Sequence record: BH153110.1
Reading direction: 5' to 3' (one strand)
DNA: 365 nucleotides
From: a phage
Shown: piece after piece, positions 1 through 365 of the stretch
Position numbering within the stretch: the first letter of the stretch is position 1
Layout of the letters: each line of letters opens with the position of its first letter
Program-made: the position numbers and the translations under genes
Notes under the pieces: generated by a model
Databases searched by the model: none
The model's input: only the letters and a program-made list of their open reading frames with translations
What the model was told of the DNA's origin: nothing

Positions 1-46
1 TTGAGGTAGTTTTTACTGACCGACCAGTAGGCCAACGTTACGGCGG

Positions 47-70
47 ATATGATAGCCTAGTTTATCATAT
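47..70. repeat. Perfect 8-bp inverted repeat ATATGATA (47-54) / TATCATAT (63-70) with 8-nt spacer; candidate operator or hairpin upstream of ORF1
   Basis: Exact reverse-complement arms read from the sequence. Direct repeat ATAGCC at 52-57 and 69-74 overlaps the arms. It ends 10 bp before ATG 80. Rough chance of such an 8-bp IR with a short spacer somewhere in 365 bp is a few percent; function is unproven. Confidence 0.3.
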
Positions 71-79
71 AGCCTTGAA

Positions 80-208
80 ATGTGGGTAGAAGATTTTAAA
101 AACTTGGCTGATACATCTAAACCGCTTTATTTGTGGGATGTTGAGTATAATTGCGATCCTAACTGGCCTGGCATTAATGTTTATGCGTCTATGACTTTAA
201 AGGTGTGA
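80..208 (+). CDS. Hypothetical small hydrophilic protein, 42 aa (MWVEDFKNLADTSKPLYLWDVEYNCDPNWPGINVYASMTLKV); family not recognised; possibly a coupled leader or partner ORF for the downstream membrane peptide
   Basis: ATG at 80 to TGA at 206-208; the frame is open from 56 after TAG at 53-55, and ATG 80 is the only canonical start. Composition is protein-like (D, E, N, P, W, Y) with consistent NNT codon preference (Asp GAT 4 of 4, Tyr TAT 3 of 3). The stop is 2 nt from the ORF2 start and the ORF2 SD is embedded in the last two codons, a typical operon junction. Against it: no Shine-Dalgarno upstream of ATG 80, and the ORF is short. Confidence 0.38.
   Translation: MWVEDFKNLADTSKPLYLWDVEYNCDPNWPGINVYASMTLKV
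146..151 (+). promoter_or_regulatory. Candidate sigma70/sigmaA-type -10 hexamer (perfect TATAAT) inside ORF1; could drive independent transcription of ORF2
   Basis: Exact TATAAT at 146-151. No good -35 at 15-18 bp spacing (cgcttt / gcttta), and the upstream TG (142-143) is one position off the extended -10 register. A consensus hexamer is not rare by chance in AT-rich DNA. Confidence 0.2.
200..205 (+). promoter_or_regulatory. Shine-Dalgarno / ribosome-binding site for ORF2 (AAGGTG)
   Basis: AAGGTG is complementary to the 16S rRNA 3' end and sits 5 nt upstream of ATG 211. It lies inside the last codons of ORF1 (AAG GTG TGA). Confidence 0.5.
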
Positions 209-210
209 TA

Positions 211-351
211 ATGGTTGAACAAATGTTAACTTCAATGGTAATGGCTTTCTGTATGGTTGTTGTTATGATTGCAATGATCCCTAAAGAGAGAATGAATCTT
301 CTTGTAGCTGTCTGTATGGGCGTTGTTTGTGGATGGTTGGGATCCGGTTAA
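211..351 (+). CDS. Hypothetical small hydrophobic protein, 46 aa, predicted two-helix hairpin membrane peptide (MVEQMLTSMVMAFCMVVVMIAMIPKERMNLLVAVCMGVVCGWLGSG); family not recognised
   Basis: ATG at 211 to TAA at 349-351, read directly. AAGGTG at 200-205 lies 5 nt upstream of the ATG. Two hydrophobic segments (residues 5-23 and 28-44) are separated by a short polar loop, PKERMN. Codon third positions are biased to T/A (Val is GTT 6 of 9), consistent with the AT-rich context. The frame is open only from 178, so ATG 211 is the first plausible start; GTG 205 is too close to the SD. Chance of a stop-free frame this long at this composition is only about 5%, so the call rests mainly on the SD and the protein-like hydrophobic pattern. 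Confidence 0.55.
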   Translation: MVEQMLTSMVMAFCMVVVMIAMIPKERMNLLVAVCMGVVCGWLGSG

Positions 352-365
352 ATCCGTATTGTGGT

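Follow-up and report, generated by a model that had tools for sequence, protein, structure and literature searches.

An apparent leader and membrane-peptide pair in a phage DNA fragment: very probably two ordinary, adjacent Krischvirus genes in a damaged copy

Introduction

The 365-nucleotide (nt) phage sequence BH153110.1, whose full length is hereafter called the window, contains two small adjacent open reading frames (ORFs), ORF1 of 42 amino acids (aa) and ORF2 of 46 aa. In the initial annotation, this pair was described as a translationally coupled hydrophilic peptide and hairpin membrane peptide and was likened to modules in which a leader or partner ORF gates the translation of a small membrane peptide, for example by the mok-hok-like coupling of type I toxin systems. 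The analysis described herein leads, with high confidence, to a simpler explanation: the window derives from an RB49-type Krischvirus and carries two ordinary adjacent genes, RB49p108 and RB49p107, in a damaged copy, and the arrangement reflects generic gene packing rather than a leader-gated toxin module.

The origin of the window was established by nucleotide comparison. A blastn search matched it to 59 phage records, all of them from Krischvirus (RB49-like T4-type coliphages of the Straboviridae), with 90–99% identity. In plasmids and complete Escherichia coli genomes no match to the window was found, and a host- or plasmid-borne toxin locus was therefore ruled out. In RB49 (NC_005066), the coding sequences (CDSs) under the match are RB49p108 (315 nt, 104 aa) and RB49p107 (159 nt, 52 aa), which form part of a long same-strand series that separates dmd/55.3 from an M15-type endolysin and consists of small hypothetical genes. 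The same pair is also annotated in Phi1, GEC-3S, JSE, G2248, Makalu, and others.

The two-ORF layout itself is real and exceeds chance. ORF1 (MWVEDFKNLADTSKPLYLWDVEYNCDPNWPGINVYASMTLKV) opens with ATG and closes with a TGA at 206–208, while ORF2 (MVEQMLTSMVMAFCMVVVMIAMIPKERMNLLVAVCMGVVCGWLGSG) starts at the ATG at 211–213 or, alternatively, at a GTG at position 205 (205..351). They are the only ORFs of at least 20 aa in the window, and both lie on the plus strand. Only 2 nt separate the TGA from the ATG of ORF2, and the sequence AAGGTG, 5 nt 5′ of this ATG, is a plausible Shine–Dalgarno (SD) sequence. The stop codon of ORF1 thus falls within the SD–ATG region of ORF2, just as originally described. 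The two products differ in character: that of ORF1 is hydrophilic (grand average of hydropathy, GRAVY, −0.29; net charge −3), that of ORF2 strongly hydrophobic (GRAVY +1.43). Among 5000 first-order Markov resamples of the window, a single ATG-initiated ORF of at least 40 aa occurred in 40%, whereas an adjacent same-strand pair occurred in just 0.34%, and it is for this reason that the layout is regarded as more than accidental.

The upstream frame is the 3′ end of RB49p108

ORF1 is a frameshifted fragment of a member of PHROG 16246, and a full-length product cannot be made from the window copy. Its match to the PHROG 16246 profile is confined to positions 63–104 of 104 (E 1e-26), while RB49p108 matches the profile from 1 to 104 (E 2e-72). 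Window positions 80–205 are 100% identical to residues 63–104 of RB49p108. Codons 36–56 of the same gene (EVVFTDRPVGQRYGGYDSLVY, window 3–65) are found in the overlapping upstream frame, where they are followed by seven out-of-frame codons (HIALKCG) and a TAG at 87–89; the first 35 codons are upstream of the window. The 42-aa ORF stands open behind an internal methionine because a 4-nt deletion splits p108. In comparison with RB49p108, phi1p108, and EpJSE_00112 of PHROG 16246, the window therefore encodes the same residues 36–56 and 63–104, but in a copy that is divided by this deletion and whose beginning lies outside the sequenced stretch.

The 104-aa frame is a real gene and not merely a longer ORF, because intact frames, selection, distant relatives, a start signal, and a one-domain model all speak for it. 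The frame is uninterrupted in 21 of 21 translated loci, and tblastn covered residues 1–104 in one piece in all 59 phage records. The ratio of non-synonymous to synonymous polymorphism (pN/pS), obtained as a sum over non-independent pairs of closely related genomes, is 0.09 for p108 overall, 0.10 for codons 16–62 (the part upstream of the window ATG and outside the overlap with the preceding gene, p109), and 0.06 for codons 63–104, as compared to 0.5–5 in the other two frames. An exhaustive HMMER search across 1.84 billion representatives returned only three distant relatives, with 56, 39, and 38% identity. They align from about residue 17–26 to about residue 103 and have in common the motif DRP(V/L)GQRY, which is encoded 5′ of the internal methionine. 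With these distant members included, the core motif of PHROG 16246 reads DRP(V/L)GQRY..G ... KP(L/V)YLW(D/S/G)(V/I)E; the window encodes DRPVGQRY (within 3–65) and KPLYLWDVE (within ORF1) in different reading frames. In RB49, p108 starts at a GTG with GGAGG 9 nt before it, about 100 nt upstream of the window, and no SD-like sequence precedes the internal ATG at window position 80. Lastly, AlphaFold2 (AF2), run on the single sequence, predicts one alpha/beta domain (H-H-E-E-H-E-E) that is built from both halves of the protein, with a moderate predicted local distance difference test score (pLDDT 66).

The 42-aa hydrophilic peptide of the initial annotation thus dissolves into residues 63–104 of a 104-aa protein whose frame is intact in 59 of 59 records and whose preceding codons are under equally strong purifying selection (pN/pS 0.10). 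A look-up of ORF1 matched a gene call in phage AV108 only. The long ORF is intact in AV108 as well, so this call is a matter of start-site choice, and a separate 42-aa peptide was rejected as its explanation. Sequence searches of Pfam, NCBIfam, PADLOC, and the PDB gave nothing meaningful for p108/ORF1 or p107/ORF2. Likewise, Foldseek against viral models led only to small proteins of large myoviruses that are themselves uncharacterised, and an IMG/VR scan with p108 returned a single locus, from phage ECD7.

The downstream frame is RB49p107, a predicted membrane hairpin

ORF2 is a real, conserved small protein with a predicted two-helix hairpin, and it is probably a membrane protein. It matches positions 1–44 of 52 of the PHROG 16035 profile (E 1.2e-30), and its residues 1–42 are identical to RB49p107. 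Homologues of 52 aa occur in all the Krischvirus relatives. From an alignment of 18 sequences, AF2 predicts helices at residues 2–22 and 30–51 (pLDDT 84) with the turn at a conserved I-P-K-E-R-M. ORF2 has the hallmarks of the PHROG 16035 hairpin: two hydrophobic helices, an I-P-x-E/H-R turn, and C-x-G-x-V in helix 2. Purifying selection is visible in the frame, with a pN/pS of 0.25 versus 1.3–1.6 in the other frames and with variable sites distributed 12/5/21 over the three codon positions. The proposal of a hairpin membrane peptide is well borne out by the model, the selection estimate, and the 52-aa homologues.

The window copy shares with RB49p107, phi1p107, and W115_233 the SD sequence, the 2-nt junction, and the hairpin, including its I-P-K-E-R-M turn and C-x-G-V-V motif. 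It differs at the C-terminus, where a 1-nt deletion leaves a 46-aa product that ends in LGSG instead of the FGI(A/S/V)LE(E/Q/H)ALR of the relatives, so that the conserved tail FGI-x-LE-x-ALR is missing. A p107 profile search of 5.8 billion proteins found 19 clusters only, all Krischvirus-like, including diverged members of 50 and 61 aa.

Neither gene is new. The suggestion that ORF2 might represent an undescribed family missed by annotation does not stand, since annotation of p107 and p108 as hypothetical proteins dates back to the RB49 record and each has a PHROG family; W115 even annotates p107 (W115_233) as "putative membrane protein". Both are therefore already known, PHROG-classified hypothetical ORFans. 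A small early membrane protein of a T4-type phage with a described role is T4 Imm, which has 83 aa and two transmembrane (TM) segments and mediates superinfection exclusion. p107 is of the same small multi-TM type and likewise lies among ORFans, in the plastic, non-core portion of a T4-type genome, but it has no detectable sequence similarity to Imm, and its profile search reached Krischvirus-like members only.

The junction between p108 and p107

The 2-nt gap between the two genes is the local norm, because 19 of the 30 same-strand junctions in an 8.3-kb stretch of RB49 measure at most 10 nt (14 of the 30 at most 3 nt, or overlapping). The spacing is not fixed either. Most Krischvirus records have the 2-nt gap, while the gap is 3 nt in KMB43, 7 nt in FL38, and 13 nt in the divergent contig L024, and the genes overlap by 7 nt in locus L023. 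The 7-nt gap of FL38 arises because TGTGA is duplicated in tandem where p108 stops and p107 starts (L007 ~909–920), which adds 5 nt to the usual gap of 2 nt. KMB43 (L022 913–917) likewise illustrates that the junction tolerates a change in length. Judged by match length, the records of FL15, Delraymugoa, and Aragogtheria show the same +5 nt.

In each junction that was read directly, the downstream gene has an SD sequence of its own: AAGGTG in RB49, GAGG in L023, and AAGGA in L024. AAGGTG is conserved in relatives, and two records, Makalu_002 and Makalu_003, annotate it as a ribosome_binding_site. The RNA of the window junction (160–260, 101 nt) has a minimum free energy of −16.5 kcal/mol versus −17.8 ± 3.1 kcal/mol for shuffled sequences (z +0.41), with no fold that would sequester the ribosome-binding site. 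An Rfam scan of the window gave no match. A promoter scan of the window found one weak minus-strand site (121–93), at the level expected by chance and not over the start of ORF2.

With an unremarkable junction RNA, an empty Rfam scan, chance-level promoters, no match to a toxin family, and a spacing that is both variable and typical of the region, the idea of mok-hok-like gating loses its footing. Some termination–reinitiation is likely over the 2 nt, as at any such T4-type junction; a dedicated gating device is not supported.

Deletions and 3′ tail of the window copy

Over window positions 1–344, the alignment to RB49 contains zero substitutions in 339 aligned bases, and two deletions are the sole differences. 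The 4-nt deletion at about 63–67 (RB49 TTTATCCATCATAT, window TTTATCATAT) is absent from RB49 and from 20 other relatives examined; its exact position is ambiguous owing to an ATC/ATC microhomology. The 1-nt deletion shortens a run of T residues (RB49 GGTTTGGG, window GGTTGGG). The last 21 nt of the window, CGGTTAAATCCGTATTGTGGT, align to nothing in RB49 or in any fetched locus. They are directly preceded by GGATC, so that a BamHI site, GGATCC, is formed, and they probably represent a contig end of low quality or chimeric origin. The 4-nt-deletion junction was searched for as an exact string in viral and metagenome contig collections, and the viral collection was also searched for the variant 3′ end; neither sequence was present, and look-ups of the exact ORF2 product in its 46-aa and 48-aa versions were empty.

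The indels are more likely to be sequencing or assembly errors, or to stem from a laboratory variant of RB49 itself, than to reflect natural divergence. Overall, we lean toward an artefactual origin of the damage, because the difference from RB49 consists of indels only, the end cannot be aligned, and adapter-derived errors are present in another record of this locus, that of phage Skers. Should both deletions be real, which we consider the less probable but still a sizeable possibility, the window would come from a natural or laboratory RB49 variant with an inactive p108 and an altered p107 C-terminus, and both genes would be dispensable. The microhomology and the T run are both plausible sites of replication slippage, other Krischvirus records contain indels here (a 2-nt insertion in pEJ01 and the TGTGA duplication in FL38), and ORFans of hyperplastic regions have mostly been described as non-essential (PMC2839356). 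However, two indels and a 21-nt unalignable end within 365 nt, next to zero substitutions in 339 bases, form a pattern typical of error-prone reads or contig ends. Moreover, neither variant junction occurs in any collection searched, and the Skers record demonstrably contains adapter-bearing assembly artefacts.

Within the locus, the Skers record (MW748999.1) contains the Illumina adapter AGATCGGAAGAGCGTCGTGTAG in both orientations (L019 993–1014 and ~1124–1140), flanked by part of the p108-3′/p107 region in duplicate. This is an assembly artefact and the cause of the truncated 34-aa CDS SKERS_245. In pEJ01 (OP114734.1), the 2-nt (TG) insertion near p107 codon 12 (L006 ~948–950) frameshifts p107. 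In its annotation, the CDS is shorter and p108 is missing, and the insertion is either a sequencing error or a real inactivation. The features of the window are collected in Table 1.

Table 1. Positions of the genes, signals, and lesions identified in the 365-nt window, with the evidence for each.
Feature	Position	Strand	Evidence
5′ part of the RB49p108 homologue	3..89	+	Translation; RB49 alignment; RB49 ORF list
4-nt deletion site that frameshifts p108	63..67	+	Alignments to RB49 and relatives
ORF1, codons 63–104 and stop of RB49p108 (PHROG 16246)	80..208	+	ORF list; profile match; pN/pS 0.06
SD-like AAGGTG for ORF2, within the last codons of the upstream gene	200..205	+	Kept in relatives
ORF2, RB49p107 homologue (PHROG 16035), predicted two-helix hairpin	211..351	+	ORF list; profile match; AF2
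1-nt deletion site in a T run, which shifts the last 9 p107 codons	337..338	+	Alignments
Tail that aligns nowhere and contains GGATCC	345..365		Alignments; pattern search

Neighbourhood and synteny

The adjacency of p108 and p107 extends to a third gene, p109. In the metagenome contigs L026–L028, p109-like, p108-like, and p107-like genes of 106, 104, and 52 aa occur in the same order, with p107 67% identical and a 2-nt gap. The order is also kept in L023, where identity over the aligned core is 56% for p108 and 45% for p107, and in L024 and the metagenome contigs L029 and L030, where it is 39% for p108 and 29% for p107. The exception is L025, in which a p108 homologue is followed by a non-homologous peptide with two TM segments. 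The p108–p107 pair is conserved and syntenic from RB49 to L023, L024, and L026–L030.

The products of p109 (106 aa) and p108 (104 aa) may be old, diverged paralogues: Foldseek related p108 to a 106-aa protein of JSE (E 4.9e-4), and BLASTP aligned the two at E 0.012 with a common ...AD...DVEY segment. In RB49, p108 (L001 3898–4212) begins with its GTG inside the 3′ end of p109 (L001 3621–3941), an overlap of 44 nt. The same boundary is a 1-nt gap in L023 and an 8-nt overlap in L024. Programmed frameshifting between p109 and p108, considered in view of the 44-nt overlap and the +1 frame, was rejected, as p108 has its own GGAGG-N9-GTG and the overlap is lacking in L023.

A stem-loop, GGGTAGT-N7-ACTACCC (L001 4384–4404), lies 10 nt 3′ of the RB49 p107 stop and is an annotated terminator in G2494. 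Its outer stem GGGTAG/CTACCC is conserved, while the loop and the position of the inner stem vary among relatives. The comparison of RB49 and phi1 described hyperplastic regions that are rich in mostly non-essential ORFans and in promoter/stem-loop (PeSL) cassettes (PMC2839356); ORFs 106–109 are not mentioned by name there. A PeSL cassette after p107 was considered and rejected: the stem-loop is present, but a properly spaced −35/−10 pair was not seen.

Further small ORFs of 50–70 aa with two hydrophobic stretches follow one another upstream of the M15_4 endolysin (L001 3205–5210; L025 523–1275). Among them are RB49p107 and p106, which were read directly, and p111, p110, and p105, whose counterparts in W115 carry the annotation putative membrane protein; L025 has four such ORFs in succession. 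Such ORFs may constitute an expanded set of small membrane proteins. In the divergent Krischvirus-like contig L024, a gene of the Acb1 family (584–1039; PF23474, a nuclease directed against the cyclic-oligonucleotide-based antiphage signalling system, CBASS) is located about 2 kb upstream of p109-p108-p107.

Alternative explanations

The proposal that a 42-aa leader or partner gates a small membrane toxin of the mok-hok or type I kind, or that ORF2 is a holin-like lysis peptide, is now highly improbable. What speaks for it is the position of the upstream stop inside the SD–ATG region of a hydrophobic peptide with two TM segments, the fact that overproduced peptides of this type are often toxic, and a location about 0.9 kb upstream of the M15-family endolysin. 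In the p108/p107 pair, as in hok/mok/sok, the end of an upstream ORF overlaps the start region of a small hydrophobic peptide. The resemblance ends there: p107 has no sequence relation to Hok, and the upstream ORF is not an overlapping leader but what remains of a conserved 104-aa protein, which is under purifying selection along its whole length and has homologues of 38–56% identity. The fold-back mRNA of hok/mok/sok has no counterpart in window 160–260, where the RNA is no better folded than its shuffled versions, and Rfam is empty; the lone minus-strand promoter-like site is at chance level, the junction geometry varies among relatives, and a strictly lytic T4-type phage offers no obvious role for an addiction module. 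The Pfam search gave nothing above E 0.03 and no toxin family, and NCBIfam and PADLOC were empty for Hok, toxin, and holin families alike. As a candidate class II-like holin, p107 does have two helices, but its C-terminus is short and net acidic, whereas that of holins is usually basic; four genes (about 870 nt) separate it from the endolysin, and PHROG and Pfam searches matched ORF2 to no holin family. The locus is thus not a member of the hok/mok/sok, catalogued type I toxin, or holin families.

The recurrence of p109, p108, and p107 together invites a different reading, in which they form a dedicated module: one or two soluble alpha/beta proteins would act with or regulate the membrane hairpin, and tight linkage would secure stoichiometric co-expression; possible tasks include superinfection exclusion, the neutralisation of a membrane-associated host defence, and the tuning of lysis. 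The order of a protein of 106 or 83–88 aa, one of 104 or 84–105 aa, and a hairpin of 50–61 aa is indeed kept down to 39–56% identity for p108 and 29–45% for p107, the p108/p107 junction is always at most 13 nt or overlapping, and p108 and p109 are possible paralogues. However, the p108 homologue of L025 adjoins a non-homologous two-TM peptide, synteny is expected among such close phages without any functional link, and all neighbouring ORFans are packed as tightly; we therefore regard a dedicated module as unlikely. Its more far-reaching form is more doubtful still: here the trio would be a functional unit, the 52-aa hairpin a new family of membrane effectors (superinfection exclusion, anti-defence, or membrane-active toxin) controlled or assisted by p108 and p109, and the window a natural p108-null variant.

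Some observations weigh against the interpretation favored here, that of ordinary packed genes in a damaged copy. The tight adjacency of p108 and p107 down to 39% identity would also fit a genuine link between them, functional or translational. The selection estimates suffer from the non-independence of the genome pairs, and the confidence of the single-sequence p108 model is moderate. In addition, literature searches returned no RNA-seq, ribosome profiling (Ribo-seq), or proteomics for any Krischvirus and nothing on the locus tags; for this reason, expression timing, translation, and membrane insertion are inferred.

Conclusion and outlook

The locus is best pictured as a densely packed, polycistronic same-strand cluster of small ORFans upstream of the endolysin, which resembles the hyperplastic regions described for RB49 and phi1 and, by its genomic setting, would be expressed early; p108 and p107 would be independently functional members of it. 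In an intact phage, p108 is an acidic, soluble 104-aa protein with a predicted alpha/beta fold, initiated at its GTG behind GGAGG, and p107 is a 52-aa helical hairpin that would insert into the inner membrane with the conserved P-K-E-R-M turn on one face. p107 is most likely translated from its own SD sequence, AAGGTG, although some reinitiation may contribute. In the window, the first gene is broken by the 4-nt deletion, which leaves just its C-terminal 42 codons open behind an internal ATG with no SD sequence before it, and the second has lost the conserved LE-x-ALR tail through the 1-nt deletion. As to function, our best guess is that p107 and p108 serve accessory, non-core roles in host interaction at the membrane.

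The value of the case lies mainly in quality control: a single indel in a short contig, whether real or artefactual, can make the end of an ordinary gene look like a "leader peptide" beside a small membrane protein. Nothing at the locus points to a new kind of system. RB49-like phages serve in phage therapy cocktails, and insight into the role of the conserved 52-aa hairpin would extend what little is known about small phage membrane proteins.

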